From Pyrinomonadaceae bacterium (lineage in GTDB: Bacteria; Acidobacteriota; Blastocatellia; Pyrinomonadales; Pyrinomonadaceae): 24,000 nucleotides of DNA. The stretch lies in the NCBI GenBank assembly GCA_035296445.1, contig DATHAZ010000149.1, forward strand, positions 48,331-72,330. Reading direction: 5' to 3'. Each line of letters opens with the position of its first letter. Position 1 is the first letter of the stretch. The notes below the pieces were generated by a model. It ran no database searches. It saw only the letters and a program-made list of their open reading frames with translations, and had not been told where the DNA came from. Shown piece after piece: positions 4,147 through 18,222 of this stretch. Position numbers and translations under genes: made by a program.

Positions 4147-4190
4147 GAGGAGGGGCAAGGAATCAACCTTGCCCCTCCTCCTCGTTTGTG
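4147..4190 (+). terminator. Rho-independent terminator-like hairpin after the Thr-rich gene
   Basis: Perfect 14-bp inverted repeat gaggaggggcaagg (4147-4160) / ccttgcccctcctc (4167-4180) with a 6-nt loop, followed by the T-containing tail ctcgtttgtg. Confidence 0.6.
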
Positions 4191-4462: not shown

Positions 4463-5230
4463 ATGAGTCAACACACATCTCCGCGATGCCTGGTCCTGGG
4501 CGGCGCGGGTTACGTCGGGTCGGCGGTATGCAGGTTGTTATATGAGTGCGGAGCACGCCTCGCGTTTACTTATCACACGGGTGGCGAGACGGCGAGAGTT
4601 TTGGCCGAAGAGTTGAAGGGCAGCTTTCCGCTCCACGCCGATCTGGCGAGTTACGCGGAGACGAGGCGCGTGGTTCGTGAGGCCGGCGGGCTGCTGGGCG
4701 GTCTCGATGCGTTGATCCAGTGTGCGGGCACGGCGGGCGATCCCACTCTCTATACAACCCGCCACGCGGACGATCACGGTAAGTTCCTGGCTATCACGGA
4801 GGCCGAGTGGGACGCGATGTTCGATGTCACCGTTCGCAGCACCTTCGCGGCGTGTCAGGAGGCGACGCTCTTGATGAGTCGGAATCAGAAGAACGGCGGC
4901 AGTATCGTCATCGTCGGCTCGATTGACGGCATCAAGCCTTTGCCCGCGCCCGTTCACTACGCAGCCGGCAAAGGTGCGCTGCGCTCCCTCACGGAAGCCT
5001 TAGCCAAAGAGTTGGGGCGAGACAACATCCGCGTCAATCTGGTCGCCCCCGGAATCCTCGAAGGCGGCATCGCGCGCCACCTGGAAGCGCGGCTGTTGCA
5101 GGATTATTTAGAGCACTGCGCTTTAAAGCGAGCGGGGAAGAGCGACGAAGTGGCCGAAGTTATCGTCCGGCTCGCACTGGATAACACTTACGTGACGGGT
5201 CAATCAATCGTGCTCGACGGGGGTTTGTAG
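4463..5230 (+). CDS. Short-chain dehydrogenase/reductase (FabG-like), SDR no. 1
   Basis: Rossmann motif LVLGGAGYVGSAV, catalytic YAAGKGAL, NIRVNLVAPG, C-terminal GQSIVLDGGL. GAGG RBS 5 nt upstream of the ATG. Confidence 0.85.
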   Translation: MSQHTSPRCLVLGGAGYVGSAVCRLLYECGARLAFTYHTGGETARVLAEELKGSFPLHADLASYAETRRVVREAGGLLGGLDALIQCAGTAGDPTLYTTRHADDHGKFLAITEAEWDAMFDVTVRSTFAACQEATLLMSRNQKNGGSIVIVGSIDGIKPLPAPVHYAAGKGALRSLTEALAKELGRDNIRVNLVAPGILEGGIARHLEARLLQDYLEHCALKRAGKSDEVAEVIVRLALDNTYVTGQSIVLDGGL

Positions 5231-5314
5231 CGAGCGCGGCGACCCGCCCGCGAGCCACGCCGAGCCTGAGACGGCACGCGCTCCGGGGCGGCGGGTTCGG
5301 ATAATTGATCGCCG

Positions 5315-5343
5315 TTGACTTGCCCTGTGCCCTTCCTTATAGT
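5315..5343 (+). promoter_or_regulatory. Near-consensus sigma70-type promoter upstream of the radical-SAM operon
   Basis: TTGACT (5315-5320), exactly 17-nt spacer, TATAGT (5338-5343). It lies about 125 nt upstream of the ATG at 5467. Confidence 0.45.
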
Positions 5344-5466
5344 GTAGCCCGAATTGACGGCGCAGACTTCTCGGGGCGTAGTTCATTCAGCCCGTCTAAC
5401 AAGGGTTTAAGAACCGCCTGCCAGCCACCTCCAGACAAGTTCTTTCGCGCGCAGGAGAAACCCCGG

Positions 5467-6987
5467 ATGCCTACTAACCCCCGCGGAACCCGCCCTTATA
5501 CTTTTTACAAGATGACGCAGAGCACCTGCCCCGAATGCCTGAAAGTGGTGCAGGCGCAGGTCGTCTTCGAGGACAACAAAGTATTCTTCCTTAAGCACTG
5601 CCGCGAACATGGACACAGCAAAGCTCTGGTGAGCGAAGACGCGGAGTACTATCAGAACGCGTTCTCGTTCAGCCGGCCGGGCAGCGTCCCTTTGCAGTTC
5701 TCGACCGAGGTTAAAGAGGGGTGTCCGACCGATTGCGGTCTGTGCCCGTCTCATCAACAGCACACCTGTCTGCCGATCATCGAGGTCACGGACTACTGTA
5801 ATCTTGAGTGTCCGGTCTGCATCGTCAACAACCAGTATTCCAACCACATGTCGCTCGGCGATTTTCAAGAGATCATTGATCTGCTTGTGCGCCACGAGGG
5901 AGTGCTCGACACCGTCACACTGAGCGGCGGCGAGCCGACTTCGCACCCGCAGTTCTGGGAGTTGATTGACATCGCCACGCGCCCCGAGGTCGGGCGCGTC
6001 TCCGTCGTCACGAACGGCATACGCATCGCCCGCTCGAAAGAGTTCTGCGCGCGCCTCAAAGAAAAAAACGTCTACGTGATCCTCCAGTTTGACGGCTTCA
6101 CCGACGATGTGCAGAAAGCGATCCGCGGCGTTGACCTGATGGAGACGAAACACAGGGCGCTCGAACACCTCGGCGAATTCAACATCTCGACGCAGATCGC
6201 TTTCGTCCCGGCGCGCGGGGTGAACGAGCATCAGTTGGGAGACGCCGTGCGGCTGCTGCTCGAACGCGACCACATTCTGTCGCTCCTGATCCAGCCGTTC
6301 GCTGCCACGGGGCACGGCGGCGGCGTCTTTCCGCACGACCCTTTGGATCGCCTGACGACGCCGGGCGTCATCCGTGCCATTGACGAACAGACCGCCGGCC
6401 TCGTCGCGCGCGAAGACTTCATCCCGCTTCCCTGCTCGCACCCGCTCTGCGTTTCGCTGACCTACCTGCTCAAGCTCGACGACGGGAGCTATCTCCCTTT
6501 CCCGCGCTTCGTGGACATGCGCCGCCACCTCGACCTGTTCCAGCAGACGGCGACCCTCGAAGCGAACGAGCAGACGGAGGATGCGCTGCAAGGTGTGATC
6601 GGCGACTTGTGGAGCACCGCCGGTGAGATACCCGACAGCCAGAAGGTCATCAAAGCGCTCAGGCGCGCCCTGCTGGAGATGTTCCCCAACAAAAAAGTTG
6701 ACCGCCGTGAACTCATCCGCATCACGGAAAGGCAGGCCAAGACGATCTTCATCCACCACTACATGGACAGACACGACTTCGACATCGAGCGTCTGATGAA
6801 GTGCTGTCACCACTACCCGCAAGTTGACGGGCGGATCATGCCCGCGTGCGGATTCAACATGTTCCATCGCGGCGCGGCGAAAGGAGCCGGGACGCAGACT
6901 CCGCCGTGGGGGAAAGGGCCGTTCATCAAAGATGATTCGCCCGAACTCAAACTCTACGCAATCGGCCGCGAGCGCAACGTCACGTGA
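5467..6987 (+). CDS. Radical SAM enzyme, COG1964 / tetraether-lipid-synthase (Tes, GDGT-MAS)-like architecture, paralog 1
   Basis: AGGAG RBS at 5453-5457, 9 nt before the ATG; the listed start at 5305 is an upstream extension. N-terminal knuckle CPEC...x19...CREHG, second Cys motif GCPTDCGLCPSH, radical-SAM CNLECPVC (CX3CX2C), SAM-binding LSGGEPTSHP, C-terminal PCSHPLC and KCC...PAC motifs. Clear paralog of 11941-13431. Confidence 0.8.
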   Translation: MPTNPRGTRPYTFYKMTQSTCPECLKVVQAQVVFEDNKVFFLKHCREHGHSKALVSEDAEYYQNAFSFSRPGSVPLQFSTEVKEGCPTDCGLCPSHQQHTCLPIIEVTDYCNLECPVCIVNNQYSNHMSLGDFQEIIDLLVRHEGVLDTVTLSGGEPTSHPQFWELIDIATRPEVGRVSVVTNGIRIARSKEFCARLKEKNVYVILQFDGFTDDVQKAIRGVDLMETKHRALEHLGEFNISTQIAFVPARGVNEHQLGDAVRLLLERDHILSLLIQPFAATGHGGGVFPHDPLDRLTTPGVIRAIDEQTAGLVAREDFIPLPCSHPLCVSLTYLLKLDDGSYLPFPRFVDMRRHLDLFQQTATLEANEQTEDALQGVIGDLWSTAGEIPDSQKVIKALRRALLEMFPNKKVDRRELIRITERQAKTIFIHHYMDRHDFDIERLMKCCHHYPQVDGRIMPACGFNMFHRGAAKGAGTQTPPWGKGPFIKDDSPELKLYAIGRERNVT

Positions 6988-7041
6988 GCGTGCGCCCCGC
7001 AACACCGTCACCGTAGACGCTCTAAGACACCGTCACTCTGT

Positions 7042-8421
7042 ATGAGCAGCCAGCCCGCCACGCCGCATCTCTCGATCTCAAAATACGCGCGCCACGTCAA
7101 CCCCCAGTTCGTCAAACTGCTCGGCGTTTTCGGTTACGGGCGCGTGTTCGAGCGAGCGAGCGACGTGTGGGTGTGGGATCAACAGGGGCGTCTGTATCTG
7201 GACTTCCTCGCCGGTTTCGGGTCGGTCAACGTCGGCCATAATCACCCTCGTCTCGTGGCGCGCCTCCGAGATTTTCTCGCCGCCGAAAGAATGAACTTCT
7301 GCCACGTCGCGCCCTGCGCCGAGGCGGCGGAGTTGGCGGAGGCTTTAGCCGGGGCGGCGGGGACGCCTCTGCGGGTCTCTCTTTTTTCCAACAGCGGAGC
7401 GGAAGCCGTCGAAGCCGGGATGAAGCTGGCGCGAGCGGCGACCGGGCGCAAAGGATTCGTCTATTGCCAACACGGCTTCCACGGCACGACCCTCGGCACG
7501 CTCTCCGTCATGGGCGGCGAGCGTCTGCGCCAGCCCTTCGAGCCTTTGTTAAATGACTGCGACGCCATCCCGTTCGGAGATTTAGACGCGCTCAATCGTG
7601 CGCTGGCGCGCGGGCGTGTGGCGGGCTTCATCGTCGAACCCGTCCAGGGCGAAGGCGGTGTGGTCACGCCTCCGCAAGGTTACTTGAAGGAGGCGCAGGC
7701 ATTATGCCGCCGGCACGGGACGCTCCTCATCCTCGACGAAGTGCAGACGGGGCTGGGGAGAACCGGGACGATGTTCGCCTACGAGGCGGAAGGCTTCACC
7801 CCGGATGTGCTGGTCTTAGCGAAGTCGTTGAGCGGGGGCGTCGCGCCCATCGGCGCGACGCTGATTTCCGAGGATACGTTCGACCGCGCTTACGGCTCAC
7901 TCGCGCGGTTTGATCTGCACGGTTCGACGTTCGGCGGCAATGCGTTCTCGTGCGTCGCCGCGCTGGAGACCCTGCGGATCATCGCCGACGAGAATTTAGT
8001 CGCGGCTGCTGCTGCGCGCGGCGCACAGTTGTTGGCGGGTCTGCGCGAAAAACTTGCAGGCCACCCGCTCGTGCGCGACATACGCGGGCGCGGTTTGTTA
8101 GTGGGCATCGAACTCGGCCCGACCGACTCGGGCTGGATCAACAAAGTCGCGCCGTCGCTGGTGAATCTCGTGTCGAAGAATGTGTTCGGGCAATGGGCGG
8201 CGCTCAAGTTGCTGGAGCGCGGGTTGATCTGCCAACCGGCCTCGCAGGCTTGGAACATCCTGCGGCTGGAGCCGCCATTGACGGTGCGGGAGGCGGAGGT
8301 GGACGCGGCCGTCGAGATGGTGGCCGGCGCTCTGGGGGAGTATCGAGGCATGTCGCCGCTGTTAAAGGATGTCGCCGAGCGTCTGGGCGGACAGTGGCGG
8401 AAAGGTTGGGCGTTTGAATGA
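7042..8421 (+). CDS. Class-III (PLP-dependent) aminotransferase
   Basis: FLAGFGSVNVGHNHP, SNSGAEAVEAGMKLAR, LILDEVQTGLGRTGTMFAYE, and PLP-lysine context VLAKSLSGG. These are typical of the acetylornithine/GABA/ornithine-oxoacid aminotransferase family. Confidence 0.85.
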   Translation: MSSQPATPHLSISKYARHVNPQFVKLLGVFGYGRVFERASDVWVWDQQGRLYLDFLAGFGSVNVGHNHPRLVARLRDFLAAERMNFCHVAPCAEAAELAEALAGAAGTPLRVSLFSNSGAEAVEAGMKLARAATGRKGFVYCQHGFHGTTLGTLSVMGGERLRQPFEPLLNDCDAIPFGDLDALNRALARGRVAGFIVEPVQGEGGVVTPPQGYLKEAQALCRRHGTLLILDEVQTGLGRTGTMFAYEAEGFTPDVLVLAKSLSGGVAPIGATLISEDTFDRAYGSLARFDLHGSTFGGNAFSCVAALETLRIIADENLVAAAAARGAQLLAGLREKLAGHPLVRDIRGRGLLVGIELGPTDSGWINKVAPSLVNLVSKNVFGQWAALKLLERGLICQPASQAWNILRLEPPLTVREAEVDAAVEMVAGALGEYRGMSPLLKDVAERLGGQWRKGWAFE

Positions 8422-9452
8422 ATCTCTCGGAGTTGAGGCGCGACCTCCGGTTCACCACCAATCTGTTGCTGCGTCGCCCGTTCGACGTGCTGGTGCAGGT
8501 CACGAACCGCTGCAACATGAAGTGCAGCTTTTGTGACTTCTGGCCGCACGGCGCGACGGCGCGCGAGGAGTTGCAGGTTGCCGAATACCGGCGCGTGGCC
8601 TCGGAACTGGCGTCGCTCGGCTGCTTCATCGTATCCGTGGAAGGCGGCGAGCCGTTCGTGCGTCCAGACCTCGTGGAGATCGTCGGGGCATTCGCCGAGC
8701 GTGGACACCTGCCGGTCGTTTATACCAACGGCTGGTACGCGGACGCCGACAAGGCGCGCGCTCTGTTCGCCGCCGGACTGACGCAGGTCGGCATCTCCAT
8801 AGACTACCCGGAGGCGCGGCGTCACGACGCCAAACGCGGACTGGACGGAGCGTTCGCGCGCGCATGGGAGGCCGTCGAGGCTTTCCGCGAGGCCGCGCCA
8901 CACGGCGGAAGACAAGTACACGTGATGACCGTTCTGATGAAAGATAACCAGCGCGACATCGAAGAGTTGTTGCGTTTGAGCGCGCGCCGCCGCGTCGGGC
9001 ACTACGTCACCCTGCTCTCGACGGCCGGCTTCCGGCGTGGCCGCAGTAGTAGTAGCGCCGACCGTGCGCCGGAGGGGGCATTCGCAGACGAGTTGCTCGC
9101 GCTGCGACGCCGCTACAAACATTTTCGCGCGCCGAGCGATTACCTGCGGCTGGCCGCCTCCTACGCCGACGGCGGCGCGATGCCGACCTGTCGCGCCGGA
9201 GTACAGACCTTCAACATAGATCATCTGGGCAACGTCTCGGCCTGCATCGAGCGCATAGACAAGCCCGTGGGAAACGTCCGCGAAGAACATCTCGTCAGCC
9301 TGCACGCGAAGCTGCAAGGCGATGAAGAGCGTGCGGAAGTCGGAAGCTGCCAGAAGTGCTGTACGATCTGCCGGGGGATGGGGCAGACGTTCGGCGCGGG
9401 CGGGTCTCTGCGCGGCTGGTGGGAGTTGGCGACGCGTATGAGGTCACATTGA
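8418..9452 (+). CDS. Radical SAM enzyme with C-terminal SPASM/twitch-like Cys cluster
   Basis: VTNRCNMKCSFCDFW (CX3CX2C), VEGGEPF glycine motif. The C-terminus has CRAGVQTFNIDHLGNVSAC (GX4C) and CQKCCTICRG. The start overlaps the aminotransferase stop (ATGA at 8418-8421). Confidence 0.8.
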   Translation: MNLSELRRDLRFTTNLLLRRPFDVLVQVTNRCNMKCSFCDFWPHGATAREELQVAEYRRVASELASLGCFIVSVEGGEPFVRPDLVEIVGAFAERGHLPVVYTNGWYADADKARALFAAGLTQVGISIDYPEARRHDAKRGLDGAFARAWEAVEAFREAAPHGGRQVHVMTVLMKDNQRDIEELLRLSARRRVGHYVTLLSTAGFRRGRSSSSADRAPEGAFADELLALRRRYKHFRAPSDYLRLAASYADGGAMPTCRAGVQTFNIDHLGNVSACIERIDKPVGNVREEHLVSLHAKLQGDEERAEVGSCQKCCTICRGMGQTFGAGGSLRGWWELATRMRSH

Positions 9453-9463
9453 GCGGGGAGACG

Positions 9464-10216
9464 ATGTTGCTGCTGCGGCCACTGTTAAAAGACAAACGCG
9501 TGCTCGTGACGGGCGGGTCGCGCGGTCTGGGACGCGCCTTCTGTGAACGCTTCGCCGCGGAGGGCGCGCACGTCGCCTTCAACTACACGAGCGACGAGAG
9601 CGGCGCGCGCGAAACCCTCGGCCGCGTCGAGACGAGCGGGCAGAGGGCGCTCGCCTTCAGGGCGTCGGTGCTCGACTACGCCGCCCTCGAACAGATGGTC
9701 AGAGAGATCGAGAGCGCATGGGGCGGCATAGACGTTCTGGTTAACAACGCCGGAATAAGTCAGCCACTGCCGTTGGCGTTGATGGAGGAGGAGGACTGGG
9801 ACGCGGTGATGGACACGAACGCGAAGGGGCAGTTTCTCGCTGCGCGCGCGGTGTTGCGGGGCATGATTCGGCGTAAGGGCGGATGTATGCTCAATATCGG
9901 CTCACTGGCCGGGGTGCGCCTGATCGAAGCGCCGATTCATTACTGCGCCAGTAAGGCCGCGGTCAAGGGCTTCACGGAGGCGCTGTCTAAGGAGGTGGCG
10001 CGCTATAATATTCGCGTCAACTGTCTCGCGCCGGGGTTGCTCGATGACGGCGTCTCACAGAATCTACCCGAGTACCGGGTGGAGGAGTTTCTCAAACACG
10101 TCTCGCTGCACCGCAAAGGCACTCTGGAGGAGGTCGCGAGGTTCGCCGCCTTCCTCATCTCCGACAGGAACAGCTACATGAACGGCGCGACGGTCGTGAT
10201 AGATGGCGGCCTGTGA
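9464..10216 (+). CDS. Short-chain dehydrogenase/reductase (FabG-like), SDR no. 2
   Basis: GGGGAG RBS at 9455-9460 followed by the ATG at 9464. VLVTGGSRGLGRAF, NNAG, YCASKAAVKG, NIRVNCLAPG. The listed start at 9356 would overlap the previous gene by ~100 nt and adds non-SDR sequence. Confidence 0.85.
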   Translation: MLLLRPLLKDKRVLVTGGSRGLGRAFCERFAAEGAHVAFNYTSDESGARETLGRVETSGQRALAFRASVLDYAALEQMVREIESAWGGIDVLVNNAGISQPLPLALMEEEDWDAVMDTNAKGQFLAARAVLRGMIRRKGGCMLNIGSLAGVRLIEAPIHYCASKAAVKGFTEALSKEVARYNIRVNCLAPGLLDDGVSQNLPEYRVEEFLKHVSLHRKGTLEEVARFAAFLISDRNSYMNGATVVIDGGL

Positions 10217-10251
10217 GAAGCGTCCGTAATTGTGAAGGGGCTGTGAGGTAA

Positions 10252-11385: not shown

Positions 11386-11975
11386 CGCCGTCCCTGCGCG
11401 CTCTGGGCGTGGTGCCCCTGGCTTTCTTCGTTCTTCATGCCCGTTACCACATCGGGCAGGGCACGGGCGGACATCTCCTGTGGGTGTGTACGGTCTCGAA
11501 CCTGCTGCTGGCGGCCGGCCTTTTTCTGGACTTGCCGATGTTGATCCGCGTCGCCGTCATGTGGCTCGTCACGGGACTGCCCCTCTGGGCGTGGGACATG
11601 TTTGAGCAGGGTATCGCGCCGGTCTCAAGTTTCCTCACACACTTCGGCGGTCTGGCGGTCGGGCTTATCGGTCTTTCCAGAGTGCGTGCCGCGCGCGGCC
11701 TCTGGGTCTGTGCTTTCATCTGGTATCTCACCTTGCAGCTCGCGGCGCGCCTGCTCACGCGCCCGGAGTTGAACGTCAACCTCGCACACGACATGCACGG
11801 CGGTTGGCGCGATTTATTCAACTCCTACTGGAGGTTCTCGGTCTTCATGAGTCTGGTAGTAGCCGTAGCCCTCTGGCTGACCGGGCTGGTAACGCTGAAA
11901 CTCTTTCCCCCGTCGGTGAATCATCCGAAGCGAGGTGCTTATGACGGCGACGACATCAGCCCGCAAACTGCATGA
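11331..11975 (+). CDS. Small polytopic membrane protein (unknown function)
   Basis: Five to six hydrophobic helices (VVPLAFFVLHA, LLWVCTVSNLLLAAGLFL, VAVMWLVTGLPLWAW, FGGLAVGLIGL, LWVCAFIWYLTLQLAA, FSVFMSLVVAVALWLTGLV). The start is uncertain: ATG 11331 overlaps the upstream gene by 55 nt, and GTG 11409/11412 are alternatives. The 3' end overlaps the next gene by ~35 nt. Confidence 0.5.
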   Translation: MARQQNAGTATPFRRHGLTPSLRALGVVPLAFFVLHARYHIGQGTGGHLLWVCTVSNLLLAAGLFLDLPMLIRVAVMWLVTGLPLWAWDMFEQGIAPVSSFLTHFGGLAVGLIGLSRVRAARGLWVCAFIWYLTLQLAARLLTRPELNVNLAHDMHGGWRDLFNSYWRFSVFMSLVVAVALWLTGLVTLKLFPPSVNHPKRGAYDGDDISPQTA

Positions 11976-13431
11976 CACGACGAGCCTCTGCGCCACCTGC
12001 AAGCGCGGCATCGAGGCGTCGTTGTGGGAGCGGGACGGCCGGATTTCCATGCGCAAGGCATGCCCCGAACACGGCGCGAGCGAGGTCTTGATCTCTTCGG
12101 ACGCCGCCTGGTATCACGAAACGCTGAACTATGCGGCGCGGACGATCCAGCCCCCGTTCGTCAAGAATGCGGTGGACAGGGGCTGTCCCTTCGACTGCGG
12201 CGCATGCGAGGCACACGAGCAGAAGTCATACCTCCCGGTCATCCCCATCACGAGCGCGTGCAACCTTGATTGTCCGGTCTGCTATACGATCAACAAGAAT
12301 GAGGATGCGTTCCACATCTCGCTCGAAGAGTTCGCGGCTATCCTCGATGTCGTGCGCCGCAACGATCCGGGGCTGAAGATAATCAACCTGACGGGCGGCG
12401 AGCCGACACTTCACCCCCAATTGACGAAGATCGTAGAGATGTGTCACGCAGCCGGAATCCACCGCGTCACCATCAGCACGCACGGATTGACCTTCATCAA
12501 CAACGAAGCGTTGCTCGACGAACTGGCCGTCCTCGGCGCGCGCATCGTCCTCTCTTTCAACTCTTTCGACGAGGCGGTCAACTATCGCATGGTCGGCGCG
12601 AGGGCGGCGAAGGGTAAGTTGAAAGTCCTCGAAAAGCTGGCGCGGCACAACGTAGACACGACGCTCATCCCGGTGCTGGCCGTCGGCTACAACGACCGGG
12701 AGATCGGCGATCTCGTGAACCTCGCGCTCTCTCAAGACTTCATCCGCAGTCTGGAAATTCACACGATGACCTTCACGGGTCAGAGCGGCACAGACTTCGA
12801 CCCCGCAGCGCGCCTGACCACGCCCGACGTGCTGCGCCGGATCGAAGAGCAGACCGGCGGCCGCATCCGCATGGGCGACTTCGTGCCCTCGCCGTGCGCC
12901 CACCCGCTCTGTTATCAAACCTGCTACCTGCTCCAGACGCCTGCGAGCGGCTTCATCCCCTTCACACGGTTCATGTCTAAGGAGACGATCCGCCAACTGC
13001 TGACGGACAACCTTTACATGGAGCCCGGCCCGCTCATGGAGTCCGCATTGCAGGACGTAGCCATGCAGTTGTGGGCGTCGGAGTTGGACGACGAGACGGG
13101 GGAAGCCGTCCTGACGACGCTCAAGAACTTAATCAAGCGCCTCTTCCCGGCCGTGCCTCTGCCTTACCACGAGCGGCAGATAATCGCCGAGCGCGCCGCC
13201 AAGACGATCTACATACACTCGCACATGGATGAGGAGAATTTCGACACCGACCGCATCCGTCAATGCTGCGTGGGCGTGCCCTCGGCCGACGGCGGCAACG
13301 TGCCGACGTGCGCCTACAACATCCTATACCGCGAGCGCGACTCGCGATTTTCGGCCAGAGACAGCGCGCCGCTCTCCACCTACGCCGGCGGGCGCAAAGA
13401 GCTGGTGCAGATCAGGCGTCCGGGCAGGTGA
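11941..13431 (+). CDS. Radical SAM enzyme, COG1964 / Tes(GDGT-MAS)-like architecture, paralog 2
   Basis: CATC...x19...CPEHG knuckle, GCPFDCGACEAH, CNLDCPVC, LTGGEPTLHP, PCAHPLC, AKTIYIHSHMDEENFD, QCC...PTC. It is collinear with 5467-6987 in every motif. The start is ATG 11941 or GTG 11935. Confidence 0.8.
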   Translation: MTATTSARKLHDTTSLCATCKRGIEASLWERDGRISMRKACPEHGASEVLISSDAAWYHETLNYAARTIQPPFVKNAVDRGCPFDCGACEAHEQKSYLPVIPITSACNLDCPVCYTINKNEDAFHISLEEFAAILDVVRRNDPGLKIINLTGGEPTLHPQLTKIVEMCHAAGIHRVTISTHGLTFINNEALLDELAVLGARIVLSFNSFDEAVNYRMVGARAAKGKLKVLEKLARHNVDTTLIPVLAVGYNDREIGDLVNLALSQDFIRSLEIHTMTFTGQSGTDFDPAARLTTPDVLRRIEEQTGGRIRMGDFVPSPCAHPLCYQTCYLLQTPASGFIPFTRFMSKETIRQLLTDNLYMEPGPLMESALQDVAMQLWASELDDETGEAVLTTLKNLIKRLFPAVPLPYHERQIIAERAAKTIYIHSHMDEENFDTDRIRQCCVGVPSADGGNVPTCAYNILYRERDSRFSARDSAPLSTYAGGRKELVQIRRPGR

Positions 13432-13433
13432 CG

Positions 13434-13910
13434 ATGCGATTCTTTCTGGTTGACCGCGTGGATGAATTGAAGCCGGGGGAGATGATCCGCGGCGTCAAGA
13501 ACGTGACGCTCAGCGAAGACTTTTTGCAGGATCACTTCCCTTCCCATCCCCTCTTTCCCGGCACATTAATGATCGAGGCGTTGGCGCAGTTGGGCGGATG
13601 CCTCGTCGAGGCCACCTTCAATACCAGCGACGACAACGTCAGGCGCGCGGTGCTCGCGCAGGTTGACCGCGCCAGATTTCACGAGGCCGTGAGGCCGGGC
13701 GATCAACTGAAGATAGTGTGCCGCCTTGTCTCGATGCTCGAAGGCGCGGCGCAGGTTAAGGGCGAAGCCAGCGTGGGCGAACGCGAGGTCGCCCGCGCGA
13801 CGCTGCTCTTCGCGCTGCGCGCCGTGGGGTCGGAACGGATACACCGGCAGCGGAGGGAAATTTACGAGATATGGACGCGCCACTTGAATCTGGACTTCAC
13901 GCTCCGCTAG
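13434..13910 (+). CDS. FabZ/FabA-like 3-hydroxyacyl-ACP dehydratase (hot-dog fold)
   Basis: MRFFLVDRV..., then the signature HFPSHPLFPGTLMIEALAQLGG. The ATG lies 2 nt after the stop of the upstream radical-SAM gene. Confidence 0.8.
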   Translation: MRFFLVDRVDELKPGEMIRGVKNVTLSEDFLQDHFPSHPLFPGTLMIEALAQLGGCLVEATFNTSDDNVRRAVLAQVDRARFHEAVRPGDQLKIVCRLVSMLEGAAQVKGEASVGEREVARATLLFALRAVGSERIHRQRREIYEIWTRHLNLDFTLR

Positions 13911-14812
13911 TTGTCACCGGAGTCGGCTCTCTCGTGCTCGCGCCCGCGCGGGCGGGCGAAGAAGACCCGTCCGTTGACGCCGCGCGCGAAGTCGCGCCGT
14001 GGCTCAAGTCGAAGAAGATGCGCAAGTTCATGGGCAAACAGGATCAACTCGCGGTGGCCGCCGCCGGCCGCGCCGCGAAAGACGCCGCCCTCGACGAGCG
14101 AACCTTGCGTGAACGCACCGGGCTTTACCTGTGCGTCGGTCATATCCCCTTCGAGCGCGCACAGATTGAAGCGATAGCCCGCGGCTCGATTCAAGCGGAC
14201 GAGTTTTGCATGGAGCGGTTTTCCACCACGGCCTTCGAGCGCGTCAACCCTCTGCTCACGTTTCGCTGTCTGCCGAACATGCCCGCCTTCCACGTCTCGC
14301 TCAACCTCGGGATGCGCGGGCCATACTTCGTCACCTACCCTTGCGCGGGACAGTTCTACCTCGCGCTTGAGTGCGCGACGGCCGCACTGGAAAGCGGCGA
14401 GGTTGATGTCGCGCTCGTGGGAGCGGTCGCCGACCAGAACAATTTTCTCGTCGCATACCATTTCCGCCGAACGTCGGATTCGCGAAAACTGACCGCTTGG
14501 GAAGGCATAGACGCGGGCGCGTTCCTGTGTCTGGAGACACGGGACGGGGCGAGGCGACGCAATGCAGAGGTCAAGGCCGAACTGCTCTCGTCGGAGGTTA
14601 GCTACGCCGCGCCGGACTCGTGGGGCGAGTCGCGGCCATTCGCGGAGTCGGTCACTTTCGCGGGCGTGAAAACGGTGGCCGCGAAGCCTACGGCGGCCTC
14701 GCTTCCCGTGAGCCTGAGCCATGCCGCAGGCGGCGCGGGCAAGGGCGAGTTCGTCCATCAACTGTCCACGGCGGGCGGCGTCGAGGCGACGAGCCGTTGG
14801 AGGGTCGTGTGA
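13871..14812 (+). CDS. Truncated beta-ketoacyl synthase-like protein (chain-length-factor-like KS partner)
   Basis: KS N-terminal-like LVVTGVGS, RKFMGKQDQLAV (compare RKMDxF in FabF), LPNMPAFHVSLNLGMRGPYF, and the YPCAGQ segment at the active-site position. It is only 313 aa and lacks a recognisable HGTGT/HGTST His motif. It overlaps the FabZ-like gene by 40 nt and ends in a GTGA overlap with the KS. Confidence 0.65.
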   Translation: MDAPLESGLHAPLVVTGVGSLVLAPARAGEEDPSVDAAREVAPWLKSKKMRKFMGKQDQLAVAAAGRAAKDAALDERTLRERTGLYLCVGHIPFERAQIEAIARGSIQADEFCMERFSTTAFERVNPLLTFRCLPNMPAFHVSLNLGMRGPYFVTYPCAGQFYLALECATAALESGEVDVALVGAVADQNNFLVAYHFRRTSDSRKLTAWEGIDAGAFLCLETRDGARRRNAEVKAELLSSEVSYAAPDSWGESRPFAESVTFAGVKTVAAKPTAASLPVSLSHAAGGAGKGEFVHQLSTAGGVEATSRWRVV

Positions 14813-16053
14813 GTCGCCGTAGACGCGTCGTTATCACAGGCGTCGGCATTGTCTCCCCGCTCGGCCACGAGTTGACCGAGTTTCGCCGCAACCTTCTCTC
14901 CGGCCTATCGGCGGCCGCGCCGATCACCGTGTTCGACCCCGCGCGCCTTCCGACCAGAATCGCGGCGCAGGTGGATGCGTCGTCTCTGCCGACTCAAACC
15001 AGGGATCGCAAAATAGCTTTCGGCCTCGCCGCGACGCGTGCGGCCATCGCCGACGCGGACGGCGGCGATGCCCTGCCCGTGGCGGAATACTACGCCGGAA
15101 CGGGCGGCGGGCTGAGTCTCGGCATCGGACTCGAACTTTTCTCGATGCCCGACATGGTGAAGTTTCTTGAGCGCGAAGAAATTCCGGCGGGCGTCCATGC
15201 GCAGACGTTTTTGCAGACGCCTTCGGACGTGTGCGCCCACTTGATCTGCCGCGAGCACGACTTCTTGCGCGCTCCGCCACTCGTCCACGTCTCCGCATGT
15301 GCGGCGGCGACCGACGCCATTGGCACAGCCTTTCGCATGATCCGCGACGGCAGGCGCAGGTGGATGCTGGCCGGAGGCGCGGATTCCATGATCAACCCGA
15401 TGGGCGTCGGAGGATTTTGCGCCATCGAAGCGACCACGCGCCGCAACCACGAGCCGCGACGCGCATCGCGCCCGTTCGACCGTGACCGCGACGGGTTTCT
15501 ACTGGGAGAAGGCGCGGGGCTGCTCGTGCTCGAAACGCTCGACGATGCACAGGCCAGGGGCGCGCGCATCTACGGCGAGGTGTCGGGCTATGGGAATTCG
15601 TTCGATGCCTACGGCATCAGCGAGCCGCACCCGGAAGGCGAAGGCGCGCTCCTCGCAATGCAACGCGCTCTCGCGGATGCCGGATTGCATCCCGAAGACA
15701 TCTCTTACATCAATGCCCATGGGACATCCACGCCGAAGAACGACGTGGTTGAGACGCGCGCGATTCGCCGCCTGCTCGGTCGCCACGCGGAGCGCGTGCC
15801 CGTCAGTTCGACCAAGTCCATGATCGGCCATCTCATTTCCGCCGCCGGGGCGGTCGAACTGGCCGCCGCCATCCTCTGCGCTGAGACCGGCTGGGTGCAT
15901 CCGACGATCAACCTCGAACGCCCCGACCCCGCCTGTGATCTGGATTACGTCGCGGAGGGCGCGCGCCGGGTGAAGGTGGAAACGATTCTCAAGAACTCAT
16001 TCGCATTCGGGGGGCAGAACGCATCTCTGGTGATACGGATGGCGGGATGTTGA
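14809..16053 (+). CDS. Beta-ketoacyl-ACP synthase II-like (FabF-type KS)
   Basis: GTG start at 14809 overlapping the upstream stop (GTGA). RVVITGVGIVSPLG, active-site HVSACAAATDAIG, RPFDRDRDGFLLGEGAGLLVLE, NAHGTSTPKND, SSTKSMIGHLISAAG, NSFAFGGQNASLV. Confidence 0.9.
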   Translation: MSRRRRVVITGVGIVSPLGHELTEFRRNLLSGLSAAAPITVFDPARLPTRIAAQVDASSLPTQTRDRKIAFGLAATRAAIADADGGDALPVAEYYAGTGGGLSLGIGLELFSMPDMVKFLEREEIPAGVHAQTFLQTPSDVCAHLICREHDFLRAPPLVHVSACAAATDAIGTAFRMIRDGRRRWMLAGGADSMINPMGVGGFCAIEATTRRNHEPRRASRPFDRDRDGFLLGEGAGLLVLETLDDAQARGARIYGEVSGYGNSFDAYGISEPHPEGEGALLAMQRALADAGLHPEDISYINAHGTSTPKNDVVETRAIRRLLGRHAERVPVSSTKSMIGHLISAAGAVELAAAILCAETGWVHPTINLERPDPACDLDYVAEGARRVKVETILKNSFAFGGQNASLVIRMAGC

Positions 16054-16793
16054 GCGGGAAAACCATCGTCGTCACGGGCGCGGCGGGCGGTATCGGGCGC
16101 GCGATTGCGCTGGCGTGCGCGAGAGAAGGCGCGAGCGTGGGCGTCAACTATTTGACGAACTGCGCCGGGGCGGAAAAACTCGTTGACGAATTGAACCGTG
16201 CCTCCGAAGGCCGCGCCTTCGCCTTGCGGTTCGACGTGCGGAAACCCGACTCGATCACCGCCGCGTGTCTCCCGCTGCTCGAAGAGGTCAAGCGCGTAGA
16301 CGGGTGGGTCAATAACGCCGGCGTTAACTTACCGGGCTTATTGATGTCCCAAACCGAAGAGATGATCGAAGAACAGATCGCGGTCAACATCAAAGGCGCG
16401 ATCTACTGTAGCCGTTTCATCCTGCCCTACATGGTGCGGCAGCGGCGCGGCGCTCTGATCAACATCGGGTCGGTGGTCAGCATGCGACCCTCGCCGGGGC
16501 AGGCTGTCTACGCAGCCACGAAAGGCGCGCTCGCCGCGTTGACACGCGCTCTGGCCGCGGAGTACGGACGGAAGGGCATACGCGTCAACTGCGTGGAGCC
16601 CGGCCCCGTCGAAACGAAGATGTTCGGGGGCACGCGGCAACTGGCGGGCGATGAGGTAAAAAATCGAATCCCGTTACGGAAATTTGGCGCGCCCGGAGAG
16701 GTGGCCGAGTTGGTGGCCTTCCTGCTCTCGGAACGCGCCTCCTTCATCACAGGCGGCGTCTTCGCGGCCGACGGCGGTTACTCCGTCGGGTGA
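16047..16793 (+). CDS. 3-oxoacyl-ACP reductase-like SDR (FabG-type), SDR no. 3
   Basis: The ATG overlaps the KS stop (ATGTTGA). IVVTGAAGGIGRAI, NNAG, YAATKGALAALTRALA, IRVNCVEPGPV. Confidence 0.9.
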   Translation: MLSGKTIVVTGAAGGIGRAIALACAREGASVGVNYLTNCAGAEKLVDELNRASEGRAFALRFDVRKPDSITAACLPLLEEVKRVDGWVNNAGVNLPGLLMSQTEEMIEEQIAVNIKGAIYCSRFILPYMVRQRRGALINIGSVVSMRPSPGQAVYAATKGALAALTRALAAEYGRKGIRVNCVEPGPVETKMFGGTRQLAGDEVKNRIPLRKFGAPGEVAELVAFLLSERASFITGGVFAADGGYSVG

Positions 16794-16836
16794 CTGTGGG
16801 AGTTCAGAGACGACGGGTAGAAAGAGACCACAGGCA

Positions 16837-17256
16837 ATGATTGAAAGAGATGAAATCTTCCGCGTCGTGCGCGGCTGCGTCGGCAAAAGCCTTGAGATTG
16901 ACGAAGAGGATGTGAAACTCGATTCACGCCTGATCAGCGAACTGGGGGCGGACTCCCTCGACTTTCTCGACATCGTCTTCAGGCTCGAAGAGAGTTTTGG
17001 GCTTAAGCTGCGCAACGCCGAACTGGATGTGCTGACCCGTGCGGAATTCACCGGCGCAACGAACGAGGACGGTTACATCCCGGCCGAAACCGTGGCGCAA
17101 TTTCGTCAATGGCTGCCCGCGCTCAGACTCGCGGAGCGCGACGACCGCATCAGCCCGCGTGACATCTACTCTTACATCACGACGGAGACGCTGGTGATCC
17201 TGATTGAACGGAAACTCGCCGAATCGGGCGGCGTTCAGAGTTCAACCGACCAGTAA
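16837..17256 (+). CDS. Acyl carrier protein with ~60-aa C-terminal extension
   Basis: Phosphopantetheine attachment motif LGADSLDFLDIVFRLEE. The protein is 139 aa from ATG 16837, whereas canonical ACPs are about 80 aa. Confidence 0.8.
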   Translation: MIERDEIFRVVRGCVGKSLEIDEEDVKLDSRLISELGADSLDFLDIVFRLEESFGLKLRNAELDVLTRAEFTGATNEDGYIPAETVAQFRQWLPALRLAERDDRISPRDIYSYITTETLVILIERKLAESGGVQSSTDQ

Positions 17257-18222
17257 GACTTTACCGCGCCGTCCGGGTCTTTCCGCATGCCGCACGGCTT
17301 CGACGACCTCCTTCAGTTCGTACTCGGCCTCGACCGGCGGCACGACCCTGCCGTTTGCCATGAGACCCAGTAGTTCGCCCCCGATCTTTCTCTGTTCCTC
17401 TACGGGCGTCCTCCTGAACCAATCGTCGAGCCAGAAACCACGGATGCTGGTGGAGCGGAAAATCATCCTCCCGGTATTGAGCGGCATGTGTTCCAACGAG
17501 AGTAAGCCATAAACCAGCATCGTCCCTCCCCGGCCGAGGACGCTCGCGACTTTGCCGCCGACCTTCCCGCCGACGGCGTCAATGGCCGCGCGCACGCCGG
17601 CTTGATTAGTGATGGACATCACCCGCTCAACTAACGATTCGTCCTCCGTGCAAATGACCTCATCCGCACCCAACTCTTTGAGTTCCTCGACCTGTTCGCG
17701 GCGGCGCACGACGTTAATCGTCTTGAAGCCGCGCAGCGCGGAGAGTTGCAGCACGATGCGCCCCAAAGTCGAGCCGGCCGCGGTTTGCAGCAGCCAATCT
17801 CCGGGACGCAACGCCAACTCCTCGGTCGTCATCACCCATGCCGTGAGAGGATTGACAACGAATTGCGCGGCGGTTGAATCGTTAATCGCGTCCGGGCACA
17901 AAATGACTTTGTTGCTCTGCGCGAGGAGGTATTCCTGCCAGGTGCCCGCAACGCCGATGGGAATCACCCGTTGACCGACGTGAAACTCTTCCACATCCGC
18001 CCCGATCTCCTCGATCACCCCGACTCCTTCGACTCCGGGCGAAGCAGGCAGCCTCGGCAGGACACCGTAAAGGCCGCGCACCGTTAACAGGTCGGAAGGG
18101 TTAACGGCACGCGCCCTCATGCGTATCAGCATCTGCCCCCGTCCTGACTCCGGCACGGGCAACTCCTCGATCTTTAATACTTCCGCCGGTTCCCCGAATT
18201 TATCAAACCTCACGCTCCGCAT
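17242..18222 (-). CDS. MDR-family enoyl reductase, MECR/Etr1-like (NADPH:quinone-oxidoreductase superfamily)
   Basis: N-terminal VNPSDLLTVRGLYGVLPRLPASPGVEGVGVIEEIG resembles the 2-enoyl-thioester reductase (MECR/Etr1) signature. Nucleotide-binding AAGSTLGRIVLQL. Its 3' end overlaps the ACP 3' end by 15 nt in convergent orientation. Confidence 0.75.
   Translation of the reverse strand: MRSVRFDKFGEPAEVLKIEELPVPESGRGQMLIRMRARAVNPSDLLTVRGLYGVLPRLPASPGVEGVGVIEEIGADVEEFHVGQRVIPIGVAGTWQEYLLAQSNKVILCPDAINDSTAAQFVVNPLTAWVMTTEELALRPGDWLLQTAAGSTLGRIVLQLSALRGFKTINVVRRREQVEELKELGADEVICTEDESLVERVMSITNQAGVRAAIDAVGGKVGGKVASVLGRGGTMLVYGLLSLEHMPLNTGRMIFRSTSIRGFWLDDWFRRTPVEEQRKIGGELLGLMANGRVVPPVEAEYELKEVVEAVRHAERPGRRGKVLLVG

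Follow-up and report, generated by a model that had tools for sequence, protein, structure and literature searches.

The koreenceine (kec) cluster pairs KS and partial-KS proteins in a type II system and includes a transamination step (PMC6498172), and the acpXL cluster combines a private FAS-II set and a dedicated ACP (PMC11901934). Bacterial Tes homologues have been proposed to couple membrane-spanning lipids of the iso-diabolic-acid/brGDGT type (PMC8941075), and in Ted/Hgs, inert lipid tails are first desaturated by a radical-SAM enzyme and then hydrated (bioRxiv 10.1101/2025.10.20.683597). Iso-diabolic acid is made by almost all species of Acidobacteria subdivisions 1, 3, 4, and 6, yet only 3 of 14 producing acidobacteria possess Tes homologues, and Mss homologues have not been found in this group (PMC13159169).

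The window, i.e., the whole stretch of 24,000 nucleotides analysed here, comes from a soil acidobacterium of the Pyrinomonadaceae. Its positions 4463–18222 hold 14 genes tightly packed in one operon, which joins a private fatty-acid/polyketide-type chain-building set, two bacterial relatives of GDGT-MAS/Tes, and amine-installing enzymes. A literature search brought up no paper on this gene context or on the product of the operon.

Gene organization and borders

Pfam and NCBIfam scans bear out the 14 genes and their order as given in the original prediction, and so does independent gene calling on the identical locus in three further assemblies (ENA, JGI, and Logan). The family assignments hold as well. 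All genes lie on the forward strand except the last, which is convergent. A terminator-like hairpin (4147–4180, forward strand; 14-bp stem with 10 G-C pairs), located 3′ of an upstream repeat-protein gene, marks the left border of the cluster. The limits at 4463 and 18222, drawn likewise in the original prediction, are where synteny with a second Pyrinomonadaceae species breaks off: there, both flanks are different but the genes from SDR to ACP and the convergent ER are kept. Synteny upstream of SDR0 differs in the related loci L087 and L088, with SDR0 itself kept in L087, and the ER retains the same overlap with the ACP in both although the flanks differ.

The junctions ATGA (8418–8421), GTGA (14809–14812), and ATGTTGA (16047–16053) and the gaps of 2 nt (13431/13434) and 11 nt (9452/9464) are exact in the sequence; the aminotransferase and the SPASM-like enzyme are translationally coupled via the ATGA. 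The longer overlaps of 35–55 nt hinge on start-codon choice. That at 11941–11975 is retained in L087. That at 13871–13910 is absent when the KS partner starts at 13934, as the gene callers chose, but the start at 13871 is likely right, since only this one retains the conserved N-terminal VVTGVG strand. The start of Mem2 is ambiguous, with 213 vs 187 aa in two gene calls. A sigma-70-like site, TTGACT-17-TATAGT (5315–5343, forward strand), does exist 124 nt upstream of rSAM-1 and matches the consensus at 10 of 12 positions. However, the scan gave 2 such sites against 2.5 expected by chance, so the site is only suggestive and the promoter argument of the original prediction carries no statistical weight. 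The site also lies downstream of SDR0 and thus cannot drive the whole cluster.

Putative functions of the encoded proteins

rSAM-1 (5467–6987; 506 aa) is the signature gene of the operon family. The protein contains Zn_ribbon_HMPTM and Radical_SAM domains (Pfam) and matches PDB 7TOL (E = 3e-69) in two stretches spanning nearly its whole length. rSAM-2 (11941–13431; 496 aa) is a second enzyme of this family, 34% identical to rSAM-1, with homologues at 56–69% identity in Betaproteobacteria bacterium GR16-43, Janthinobacterium, and Hyalangium minutum. In both, the CX3CX2C motif of radical SAM enzymes is retained along with the cysteines of the zinc ribbon and others that align with cysteines of the solved enzyme; these last we take to be auxiliary-cluster ligands. 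The cluster cysteines of rSAM-1 are invariant in 16 homologues. Judging from these alignments, rSAM-1 and rSAM-2 are both homologous over their full length to GDGT-MAS/Tes, the archaeal tetraether synthase, so that what had been offered as an analogy is a real homology, with matched cysteines in the aligned blocks. Their NCBIfam scores fall under the cutoffs (rSAM-1: 277 bits for TrsS, cutoff 490, and 268 bits for Tes, cutoff 450; rSAM-2: 255 bits for Tes), and being below the Tes equivalog cutoff, both may catalyse a reaction different from tail coupling.

The third radical SAM enzyme (8418–9452; 344 aa) has a SPASM/twitch-like Cys-rich C-terminus. Its Radical_SAM match is clear (E = 7e-24), its SPASM match is weak (E = 0.005, under the Pfam cutoff), and its best NCBIfam matches, NirJ2, AhbD, and MftC, are all far under cutoff. 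Pfam and NCBIfam scans detected no B12-binding domain in the radical SAM enzymes. The class-III (omega-type) aminotransferase (7042–8421; 459 aa; Aminotran_3, E = 3e-93) is closest to PigE (466 bits, NCBIfam cutoff 850), with PDB 4PPM (E = 5e-97) as the best structure match and putrescine aminotransferase as the next. PigE aminates an aliphatic aldehyde. SDR0 (4463–5230; 255 aa) is a classical short-chain dehydrogenase/reductase (Pfam adh_short_C2, E = 3e-45) whose homologues in other genomes usually adjoin an aminotransferase and rSAM-2, and SDR2 (9464–10216; 250 aa) is a FabG-like reductase (adh_short_C2, E = 7e-56; FabG models, 221–223 bits).

Mem1 (10252–11385; 377 aa) is a polytopic His-rich membrane protein with no Pfam or NCBIfam match; it belongs to an undescribed family of which 206 homologues were collected, none annotated. 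Residues H60, H122, H127, H277, H353, D71, and D357 are invariant. Its AF2 model is all-helical (pLDDT 90.7), and no PDB match was found by fold or sequence. A relationship to FA_hydroxylase was considered, and comparison with that family showed no relation. The conserved His and Asp residues lead us to guess at an oxygenase role. Mem2 (11331–11975; about 214 aa) has about five hydrophobic segments by hydropathy and no family match in profile scans. Its gene overlaps the start of rSAM-2, and in most loci carrying Mem2 it lies directly 5′ of a Tes-like rSAM.

The remaining genes encode the chain-building set. The DH (13434–13910; 158 aa) is a FabZ/ApeI-like 3-hydroxyacyl-ACP dehydratase (FabA domain, E = 2e-20; FabZ PRK00006, 115.8 bits, just above the cutoff of 113), also listed as ApeI-like in the precomputed Pfam list. 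The FabF-like KS (14809–16053; 414 aa) has both KS domains and an intact Cys-His-His triad, with the motifs ACAA, HGTST, and GH visible; it scores 423.8 bits for fabF (cutoff 493.75) and 406 bits for PRK07314 (cutoff 387). Its CLF-like partner (13871 or 13934 to 14812) comprises only the N-terminal ketoacyl-synt domain. The C-terminal half with the two His residues is missing, and Ala occupies the catalytic-Cys column. This protein is catalytically dead, and the alignment supports the KS/CLF-type character suggested for the synthase. The KR (16047–16793; 248 aa) is FabG-like (adh_short_C2, E = 2e-61). The dedicated ACP (16837–17256; 139 aa; PP-binding, E = 3e-9) carries a DSL serine motif and a C-terminal extension of ~60 aa that is conserved across phyla, with P94, P107, V120, and L122 invariant. 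The ER (17242–18222, reverse strand; 326 aa) overlaps the 3′ end of the ACP gene by 15 nt; its ADH_N and ADH_zinc_N domains and matches to PDB 7AYC, 2VCY, and 1ZSY (E about 2e-48) bear out a MECR/Etr1-type MDR enoyl-thioester reductase. Together, these proteins, among them an active KS, make up a type II synthase that brings along a carrier protein.

Distribution of the operon family

The rSAM-1 clade has 154 matches among 185,579 species-representative genomes. Of the 80 best, which were inspected, most come from Myxococcota and Massilia and just 3 from Acidobacteriota. A near-collinear counterpart of the whole operon, with two aminotransferases and two Tes paralogues, lies in the complete genome of Betaproteobacteria bacterium GR16-43. 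The cluster is thus not the orphan it had been called. Among the 33 species-representative loci whose rSAM-1 homologue is flanked by 9 kb or more on each side (the well-flanked set), 31 have SDR2 and 29 have KS; DH, KS partner, and KR occur in 27 each, ACP in 25, aminotransferase in 24, rSAM-2 in 13, the aminotransferase–SPASM pair in 10, and SDR0 in 9. A core of a Tes-like rSAM and a FabG-like SDR near DH, KS with inactive partner(s), KR, and long ACP is retained in 29/33, across Myxococcota, Massilia/Janthinobacterium, other Burkholderiales, Turneriella, Vulcanimicrobiota, and Acidobacteriota. The universal core is therefore rSAM-1/SDR plus DH/KS/KS-partner/KR/ACP, smaller than the 14-gene unit originally envisaged, and the aminotransferase, SPASM enzyme, rSAM-2, SDR0, Mem1, and Mem2 are variable modules. 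A MECR-like ER belongs to the cluster only in Pyrinomonadaceae; in other phyla its slot is filled by a nitroreductase-fold flavoprotein (25/33 loci). The original prediction of a saturated chain thus suits Pyrinomonadaceae, but the family overall may produce unsaturated chains.

Could the locus be an assembly artefact, or housekeeping FAS-II genes placed by chance beside radical SAM genes unrelated to them? In favour of this, the score of the KS is above the cutoff of one FabF subfamily, and that of the DH is barely above a FabZ cutoff. However, no FabD, FabH, or FabI/AccABCD context exists at the locus, the KS partner is catalytically dead, and the ACP is atypically long. With the identity of independent assemblies, the intact cluster between different flanks in another species, and the co-conservation of the core across phyla, the arrangement is beyond chance; we give this explanation a negligible probability and regard it as ruled out as far as comparative genomics can do so. 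Synteny-defined borders, co-occurrence of the core in the 33 loci, and the near-collinearity of GR16-43 identify the genes as a functional unit.

The distribution also bears on whether the Tes-like enzymes join the omega ends of two fatty chains, made or elongated by the cluster synthase, to give iso-diabolic-acid/brGDGT-type bolalipids. The Tes homology with its conserved cysteines, the role proposed for bacterial homologues (PMC8941075), and the membrane partners Mem2 and, in relatives, LPG_synthase_TM agree with such a product, and the host family falls in subdivision 4 of the Acidobacteria, one of the four subdivisions whose species almost all make iso-diabolic acid with no Mss homologue found (PMC13159169). 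Nevertheless, the clade is rare and barely represented by Acidobacteriota among its 80 best matches, few producers possess Tes homologues, both rSAMs score under the Tes cutoff, and coupling ordinary iso-C15 membrane chains requires no private KS/ACP set, aminotransferase, or SDRs. To our knowledge, neither Myxococcota nor Massilia has been reported to make such lipids. The taxonomic distribution disfavours the rSAM-1 clade as the general iso-diabolic-acid/brGDGT enzyme, and we find this role of the operon very doubtful.

Proposed pathway and product

We hold with moderate confidence that a type II synthase builds an ACP-bound chain, which undergoes Tes-type radical modification, oxidation, and transamination to yield a specialised amino-lipid; the general idea of the original prediction fits, its membrane-spanning product staying hypothetical. 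We infer every chemical step from sequence. An acetyl starter, or a fatty acyl chain from housekeeping FAS-II, would be elongated on the dedicated ACP by the KS/KS-partner pair with KR, DH, and ER, with use of the housekeeping FabD, to a saturated or partly reduced chain. The kec and acpXL clusters offer precedents, the former for a KS/partial-KS system combined with transamination and the latter for a FAS-II set that has an ACP to itself. The Tes-type enzymes would take hydrogen from unactivated sp3 carbons and then form new bonds, by analogy with Tes most likely C-C bonds, coupling tail to tail or closing a ring or macrocycle; rSAM-2 probably acts at the membrane with Mem2. An oxygen function, from Mem1 as a possible metallo-oxygenase or from a retained beta-hydroxyl, may be raised to the carbonyl level by an SDR or the SPASM enzyme. 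Such oxidations are known from the SPASM-type enzymes BtrN and anSME. The PigE-like transaminase would convert the carbonyl into an amine, and the end product is most likely an amino-functionalised lipid, possibly cross-linked or cyclised. As predicted, the window encodes no thioesterase, acyltransferase, adenylating enzyme, transporter, or regulator, and no such family is conserved in related loci. The destination of the product is thus not explained by any conserved thioesterase, acyltransferase, or exporter; with no conserved release enzyme, general lipid-assembly enzymes probably take over the chain from the ACP, or it is released in some other way. Amine-forming genes are missing from about a quarter of loci, which also speaks against the proposed pathway.

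SDR2 lies directly downstream of the rSAM-1 homologue in 65/73 loci. This constant pairing hints that, beyond a C-C bond, the radical step yields or depends on an alkene or an oxygen function. Accordingly, rSAM + SDR (+ aminotransferase) modules might introduce one or two amines into a long chain with no carbon coupling at all, through radical desaturation or oxidation at an inert position, hydration, SDR oxidation to a ketone, and transamination. A second rSAM-2/SDR/aminotransferase/SDR set recurs among related loci, GR16-43 has its aminotransferase and Tes-like genes in duplicate, the sub-cutoff Tes scores suit a different reaction, and Ted/Hgs offers a precedent. Ted, however, is a B12-dependent enzyme that is not Tes-like, the opposite of rSAM-1 and rSAM-2, and the locus has no dedicated hydratase besides the FabZ-like DH. 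Moreover, the conserved aligned cysteines are those that, reportedly (Lloyd et al., 2022), are understood to carry the C-C coupling intermediate in Tes. This route seems quite unlikely to us.

A diffusible product is unlikely. In such a koreenceine- or prodiginine-MAP-like alkaloid pathway, transamination of a short reduced chain would lead to an N-heterocycle, to which the rSAMs add carbocycles or cross-links. The window and its relatives share KS/partial-KS pairs (two in most relatives), ACP, KR, DH, and an aminotransferase with the kec cluster (PMC6498172), and that aminotransferase is nearest to PigE. The cluster is also patchy and horizontally transferred, with rSAM-1 77–80% identical across phyla, which is typical of secondary metabolism, and TonB-dependent receptors adjoin it in Massilia. 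On the other hand, KecF and PigE have an acyl-ACP reductase domain that the window aminotransferase lacks, no thioester reductase, exporter, regulator, or resistance gene is conserved, and the aminotransferase is missing in 9/33 loci. The amino-lipid is favoured by a lipid/membrane context: polytopic Mem1 and Mem2, the adjacency of Mem2 and a Tes-like rSAM, and the recurrence in or beside the relatives' clusters of LPG_synthase_TM, an OlsE-like lipid hydroxylase, a PlsC-type acyltransferase, or a weak phospholipase-C-like gene.

Collectively, the region 4463–18222 is a member of a widespread, horizontally exchanged biosynthetic operon family. Bacterial Tes homologues with a predicted function were already known, and no published description of the gene context was found. 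Were membrane-spanning lipids its product after all, the operon would supply the acidobacterial counterpart of Tes/Mss that has been missing.

Gene content and borders of the cluster

The locus comes from a metagenome-assembled genome of Pyrinomonadaceae (Acidobacteriota). An assembly artefact is excluded, because one and the same class-III aminotransferase protein, with the same neighbouring genes, is encoded in three assemblies made independently (ENA k141_724412, a JGI metagenome contig, and a Logan assembly), and the protein of rSAM-1, the first Tes-like radical SAM enzyme, is 100% identical to the NCBI entry 'Pyrinomonadaceae bacterium'. Pfam and NCBIfam scans upheld every family named in the original prediction. 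The cluster opens with an SDR (SDR0, 4463–5230), followed by rSAM-1 (5467–6987), the aminotransferase (7042–8421), a second radical SAM enzyme with a Cys-rich tail and a weak SPASM match (8418–9452), and a further SDR (SDR2, 9464–10216). Two membrane proteins without a family match, Mem1 (10252–11385) and Mem2 (11331–11975), precede a second Tes-like enzyme (rSAM-2, 11941–13431), a FabZ/ApeI-like dehydratase (13434–13910), a KS partner (ending at 14812), a FabF-like KS (14809–16053), a FabG-like KR (16047–16793), an ACP of 139 aa (16837–17256), and a convergent MDR reductase (17242–18222). Direct reading of the sequence gave exactly the predicted ATGA, GTGA, and ATGTTGA junctions, along with the gaps of 2 nt and 11 nt. 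For the KS partner, gene callers place the start at 13934 and the original prediction placed it at 13871; the latter is probably correct, as it keeps the conserved VVTGVG N-terminal strand.

The promoter-like site at 5315–5343, from which co-expression had been argued, is present, but the scan total is no higher than chance and the site lies downstream of the first SDR gene. Being statistically uninformative, it was dropped as proof of operon structure. Rfam and tRNA scans of the 124-nt leader and the rest of the window revealed no known RNA element and no tRNA. The borders are defined by a second Pyrinomonadaceae species, whose proteins are 71–91% identical to those of the window. Everything from the first SDR through to the ACP is kept there, as are the convergent reductase and its short overlap, whereas the flanks differ (PIG-L and DUF488 upstream; a small ORF and an ATPase downstream). 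Since, in addition, a strong hairpin (4147–4180) precedes the cluster in the window, the predicted limits of 4463–18222 correspond to a natural unit in this lineage.

Several features lie around this unit. Just outside it are genes for a Coa1-like (cytochrome oxidase assembly) membrane protein (18256–18618, minus strand) and a GNAT acetyltransferase (19100–19603, minus strand), neither of which is beside the cluster in the second species (L087). On the other side, a Ser/Thr kinase gene (1581–2627) precedes a plus-strand gene (2704–4068) for a 454-aa Thr/Ala/Gly-rich repeat protein (TATGTGT... and NTATATN... units) with a single N-terminal hydrophobic segment and no family match; this gene is the source of the extreme AT skew (0.66) and the 70% GC at 3–4 kb. 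Between 20000 and 24000, GC drops from about 0.60 to 0.46–0.53, and an HTH_17 (excisionase/MerR-like) ORF (20534–20785) occurs with several ORFs without a family match; this region may be foreign or mobile DNA.

Conservation and spread of the family

The cluster had been called orphan, a description that does not hold, as its core recurs across phyla. More than 1,800 rSAM-1 homologues are found at E < 1e-20, and scanning a single genome for each GTDB species located close relatives of rSAM-1 in 154 species. The loci of the best 80 of these 154 were inspected; they belong to Myxococcota (Polyangium, Archangium, Hyalangium, Kofleriaceae, and Haliangiales), Massilia and other Burkholderiales, Turneriella, Vulcanimicrobiota, Bdellovibrionales, and a few Acidobacteriota. 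Each stretch was assigned to its best-matching window protein, and 33 loci with at least 9 kb on either side of the rSAM-1 homologue were taken as well flanked. Among these 33, SDR2 is present in 31, the KS in 29, the dehydratase, KS partner, and KR in 27 each, the ACP and a nitroreductase-fold protein in 25 each, and the aminotransferase in 24. The implied unity of all 14 genes, however, is not borne out: rSAM-2 occurs in 13 of the 33 loci, the SPASM-like enzyme in 10, SDR0 in nine, Mem1 in seven, Mem2 in six, and the MDR reductase in one. Of 73 loci, 65 have SDR2 directly after the rSAM-1 homologue; in 48 of 67, the gene upstream of that homologue and divergent from it is the dehydratase. 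Four loci gave no KS match; in three of them, the gene order is window-like and the KS genes lie beyond the 10-kb flank, which was confirmed directly for GR16-43. Chance juxtaposition and housekeeping FAS-II are rejected as explanations, given the co-conservation of the core and the synteny with the second species.

When the remaining neighbouring ORFs were clustered, leaving out the window's own contigs and duplicate records, no further family (thioesterase, acyltransferase, exporter, or regulator) was found in more than nine related loci; the largest residual families are kinases, TonB receptors, an arginase-like protein, and a PPTase. Thus, the family as a whole lacks a thioesterase, acyltransferase, transporter, and regulator. 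As side observations, the cluster of Massilia aquatica has genes for two TonB-dependent receptors and a DyP-like peroxidase ORF at its flanks (L044 12189–14396 and 17045–19534), and four myxobacterial loci (L019, L033, L057, and L080) hold three Tes-like paralogues within 20 kb.

The complete genome of the Betaproteobacteria bacterium GR16-43 contains a near-collinear operon in the order rSAM-1, aminotransferase, SPASM-like enzyme, weak phospholipase-C-like ORF, FMO-like flavoprotein, LPG_synthase_TM, SDR2, second aminotransferase, SDR0, Mem2, rSAM-2, dehydratase, KS partner, KS, KR, nitroreductase-fold protein, and ACP. Its extras relative to the window include the FMO-like flavoprotein and the second aminotransferase. 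The insertion of a weak zinc-phospholipase-C-like ORF with LPG_synthase_TM (an MprF-type flippase domain) is seen both here (L090 3798–6658) and in Janthinobacterium (L091 11631–13282). Between Pyrinomonadaceae, Vulcanimicrobiota, Burkholderiales, and Bdellovibrionales genomes, rSAM-1 identity is 77–80% (L006–L012 compared with the window), with a gene order in common with GR16-43. This cross-phylum identity and shared order indicate a recent horizontal movement of the operon across phyla.

Enzymes of the cluster

rSAM-1 aligns with the solved GDGT-MAS structure 7TOL in two stretches covering residues 13–470 (E 3e-69), and every cysteine of the 7TOL chain in the aligned blocks is matched. The matched cysteines are invariant in 16 homologues with 58–78% identity to the window protein. 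rSAM-2 shares 34% identity with rSAM-1 over the full length and keeps the same motifs. As in Tes/GDGT-MAS (MJ0619, MA_1486; 7TOL), both full-length proteins combine a zinc-ribbon/rubredoxin-like N-terminus (PF23545), a Radical_SAM core, and a C-terminal Cys-containing domain, with the Tes-family motifs CX3CX2C, GCPxDCGxC, CC...C, and the zinc-ribbon CxxC...C. The putative assignment of these cysteines to metal clusters is one that we take from our reading of the solved 7TOL structure.

Yet, the window enzymes are only about 35% identical to the archaeal ones. They score 268 bits (rSAM-1) and 255 bits (rSAM-2) against the 450-bit cutoff of the NCBIfam Tes equivalog NF045702, and 277 and 251 bits against the 490-bit cutoff of TrsS, the top NCBIfam name, which in the literature is a catalogued selenoprotein family with no function given. 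Because neither cutoff is reached, both are classed, on their scores, as Tes homologues and not as orthologues by the equivalog criterion. Within the Tes superfamily (516 clusters at 50% identity, E 1e-30 or better), they are two deep bacterial branches. Their setting differs as well: the host is a bacterium without archaeol, two paralogues share one cluster, and the surrounding operon brings a KS/ACP set of its own along with SDRs and a transaminase. We know of no archaeal tes gene in a KS/ACP-set operon, the loci compared here being bacterial. An isoprenoid (archaeol-type) substrate is unlikely in view of the bacterial host and the acyl-ACP context.

The synthase genes form a private elongation set with a discrete ACP, a KR, and an ApeI/FabZ-type dehydratase. 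In the alignment, the KS (14809–16053) has the Cys-His-His triad, while in its partner Ala occupies the Cys column and the C-terminal half is missing, which makes the partner CLF-like and catalytically inactive. The KS scores 423.8 bits against the fabF equivalog cutoff of 493.75, and the ACP scores 45.7 against 70.45 (acyl_carrier equivalog) and 48.8 against 71 (best ACP subfamily model). No FabD, FabH, or FabI is encoded in the window, which places the set outside housekeeping FAS-II. The ACP (16837–17256) carries a C-terminal extension of about 60 aa that is conserved from Acidobacteriota to Myxococcota with invariant P94, P107, V120, and L122 (alignment A5). This long ACP is an undescribed ACP subtype, and its extension may be a docking element.

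The convergent reductase (17242–18222) had been predicted to be MECR-type; indeed, after one unannotated quinone reductase, it is closest to the mitochondrial MECR/Etr1 enoyl-thioester reductases. Outside Pyrinomonadaceae, a BluB/FbiB-C-like nitroreductase-fold flavoprotein lies between the KR and the ACP (e.g., L004, L005, L044, and L090) and is a core member of the family, whereas the window contains no such protein and has the MECR-like reductase instead. The C-terminal domain of FbiB reduces an activated C=C bond. By analogy, a non-orthologous replacement at the enoyl-reducing step is plausible.

Among the tailoring enzymes, the aminotransferase (7042–8421), a single Aminotran_3 domain of 459 aa, is closest to PigE (NCBIfam 466 bits; PDB 4PPM, E 5e-97), followed by putrescine aminotransferase. 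PigE aminates an aliphatic keto-aldehyde in prodigiosin biosynthesis. Judged by these relatives, the predicted substrate is an aliphatic chain bearing an aldehyde or ketone. Translational coupling links the aminotransferase to the SPASM-like radical SAM enzyme (8418–9452), and the pair recurs in related loci. The match of the latter to SPASM (PF13186) is weak (E 0.005; 17.5 bits against a cutoff of 21.5), as it is for the Janthinobacterium homologue, although the Cys-rich C-terminus is present. BtrN and anSME are examples of SPASM/twitch enzymes that turn alcohols into carbonyls, and by analogy this coupled pair could convert C–OH to C–NH2. In relatives, an FMO-like flavoprotein lies between the SPASM-like enzyme and SDR2, and at other loci an OlsE-like hydroxylase is found inside the cluster, which suggests a possible oxygenase slot in the cluster family.

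Mem1 (10252–11385) belongs to a family of 206 unannotated proteins with invariant His and Asp residues. Its AlphaFold model, of high confidence (pLDDT 90.7), is all-helical, and no match was found among PDB folds, PDB sequences, or the FA_hydroxylase family. A homologue with 36% identity in Acanthopleuribacter pedis (L086 10001–11134) stands alone by a TonB-dependent receptor, far from KS or Tes genes; because the family thus occurs outside such clusters, its role appears to be wider than this cluster. In most loci where Mem2 (11331–11975) occurs, the gene directly after it is Tes-like.

Proposed pathway, related systems, and significance

The cluster is a real, well-delimited operon that is conserved across phyla and built from known kinds of enzymes. 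Within it, two Tes-type enzymes, oxidoreductases, and an omega-transaminase are joined to a complete, dedicated type II elongation set as one conserved unit. Using its own ACP, the synthase would extend a starter. Radical C–H activation of the chain would follow, carried out by the Tes-type enzymes and, given their conserved cysteines, most likely ending in C–C bond formation; a carbonyl generated on the chain would be transaminated. The membrane proteins, together with the LPG_synthase_TM, OlsE-like hydroxylase, and PlsC-type acyltransferase of relatives, point to a membrane lipid over a secreted compound. The anatomy given in the original prediction is therefore accurate and its mechanistic sketch reasonable, while the orphan status, the weight placed on the promoter, and the unity of the 14 genes are not retained.

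The cluster partly resembles four known systems but departs from each of them in at least one defining feature of that system. It shares with aryl-polyene type II PKSs a discrete KS with an inactive partner, an ApeI/FabZ-like dehydratase, a FabG-like KR, and a dedicated ACP. However, whereas a polyene product involves no enoyl reduction, the window encodes the MECR-like enoyl reductase and relatives encode the nitroreductase-fold protein, and the aryl-starter ligase, methyltransferase, LolA/MMPL export, glycosyltransferase, and acyltransferase are absent from the window and not conserved in relatives. To our knowledge, radical SAM enzymes are not part of aryl-polyene clusters. The rhizobial acpXL-lpxXL cluster for VLCFA likewise has FAS-II elongation genes to itself, comprising a separate ACP, a FabZ, a dehydrogenase, and two genes of FabF type, but it ends in the lipid A acyltransferase LpxXL (PMC11901934), whereas no acyltransferase is present in the window or conserved in relatives, and it lacks radical SAM and transaminase genes. 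Candidate ladderane clusters of anammox bacteria, whose function is likewise unproven, combine FAS-II paralogues (ACP, FabZ, and FabF) with radical SAM genes. In those clusters, a B12-dependent radical SAM enzyme and a phytoene-desaturase-like enzyme lie beside amxACP/FabZ/FabF (PMC13459092); the window enzymes are Tes-type, domain scans of the window proteins detected neither a B12-binding nor an amine-oxidase/PDH domain, and anammox planctomycetes are not among the hosts.

A rival reading is a koreenceine-like polyketide alkaloid. The kec cluster of Pseudomonas koreensis has an ACP, KS/partial-KS heterodimer pairs, reductases, and an aminotransferase whose substrate is a reduced polyketide chain (PMC6498172), a set that recalls the present one, and most relatives of the window have two KS pairs, as kec does. 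However, the window has one pair, its aminotransferase stands alone whereas KecF is fused to an acyl-ACP reductase (PMC6498172), and kec lacks radical SAM enzymes, an enoyl reductase, and the membrane proteins. By analogy with Ted/Hgs, a further rival would have modules of radical SAM enzyme, SDR, and aminotransferase functionalise C–H bonds.

An attractive but weakened possibility is the pathway to brGDGTs or iso-diabolic acid. The nearest demonstrated bacterial function is that of Mss (Thermotoga and Thermoanaerobacter), which joins fatty-acid tails by radical SAM chemistry (PMC13159169). Mss works with no dedicated synthase cluster, and it is not a Tes homologue, since the Mss-encoding genomes of T. 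maritima and T. ethanolicus lack one (PMC13159169). Subdivision 4 acidobacteria make such lipids without Mss, although only 3 of 14 producers have Tes homologues (PMC13159169), and the taxonomic spread of the rSAM-1 clade also weakens this reading. An assignment of rSAM-2 to a clade of cultured brGDGT-producing acidobacteria was rejected: Koribacter, Solibacter, and Edaphobacter are absent by name from its best 120 homologues, weak evidence given that most matches are unnamed, and the named entries among its best homologues are GR16-43, Janthinobacterium, and Hyalangium minutum. Returning to the lipid-making pathway outlined here, its boldest version is that Tes-family enzymes were recruited in bacteria for chains from a dedicated type II synthase to make a new class of tail-coupled or macrocyclic amino bolalipids in Pyrinomonadaceae (subdivision 4), with variants in myxobacteria and Massilia, the acidobacterial version being the aerobic iso-diabolic-acid/brGDGT route or its amino derivatives; we regard this as improbable.

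In 2022, 456 bacterial Tes homologues were reported and proposed as brGDGT enzymes (PMC8941075), and as of 2025 they were still experimentally unconfirmed (PMC11868695). They receive only a brief mention, opening the section on Mss, in a review of lipid-modifying radical SAM enzymes from 2026 (PMC13459092). Their counts have since 2022 been a basis for inferring the producers of the brGDGT palaeoclimate biomarkers, none of the homologues having been tested (PMC8941075; PMC11868695). In the full-text literature searched, no description of Tes homologues inside KS/ACP clusters was found, an absence that is no proof. One large bacterial Tes-like clade is not a free-standing membrane enzyme and sits in a conserved operon with a KS pair and a carrier protein, so that caution is needed in inferring a brGDGT producer from a Tes homologue. 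Three undescribed families are also defined, namely the His-rich membrane protein Mem1, the Tes-like enzyme partner Mem2, and the long ACP. Finally, culturable carriers (Massilia aquatica, M. frigida, and M. rubra, Archangium violaceum, Hyalangium minutum, Polyangium fumosum, and GR16-43) offer a system for Tes-type C–H chemistry on fatty or polyketide chains.
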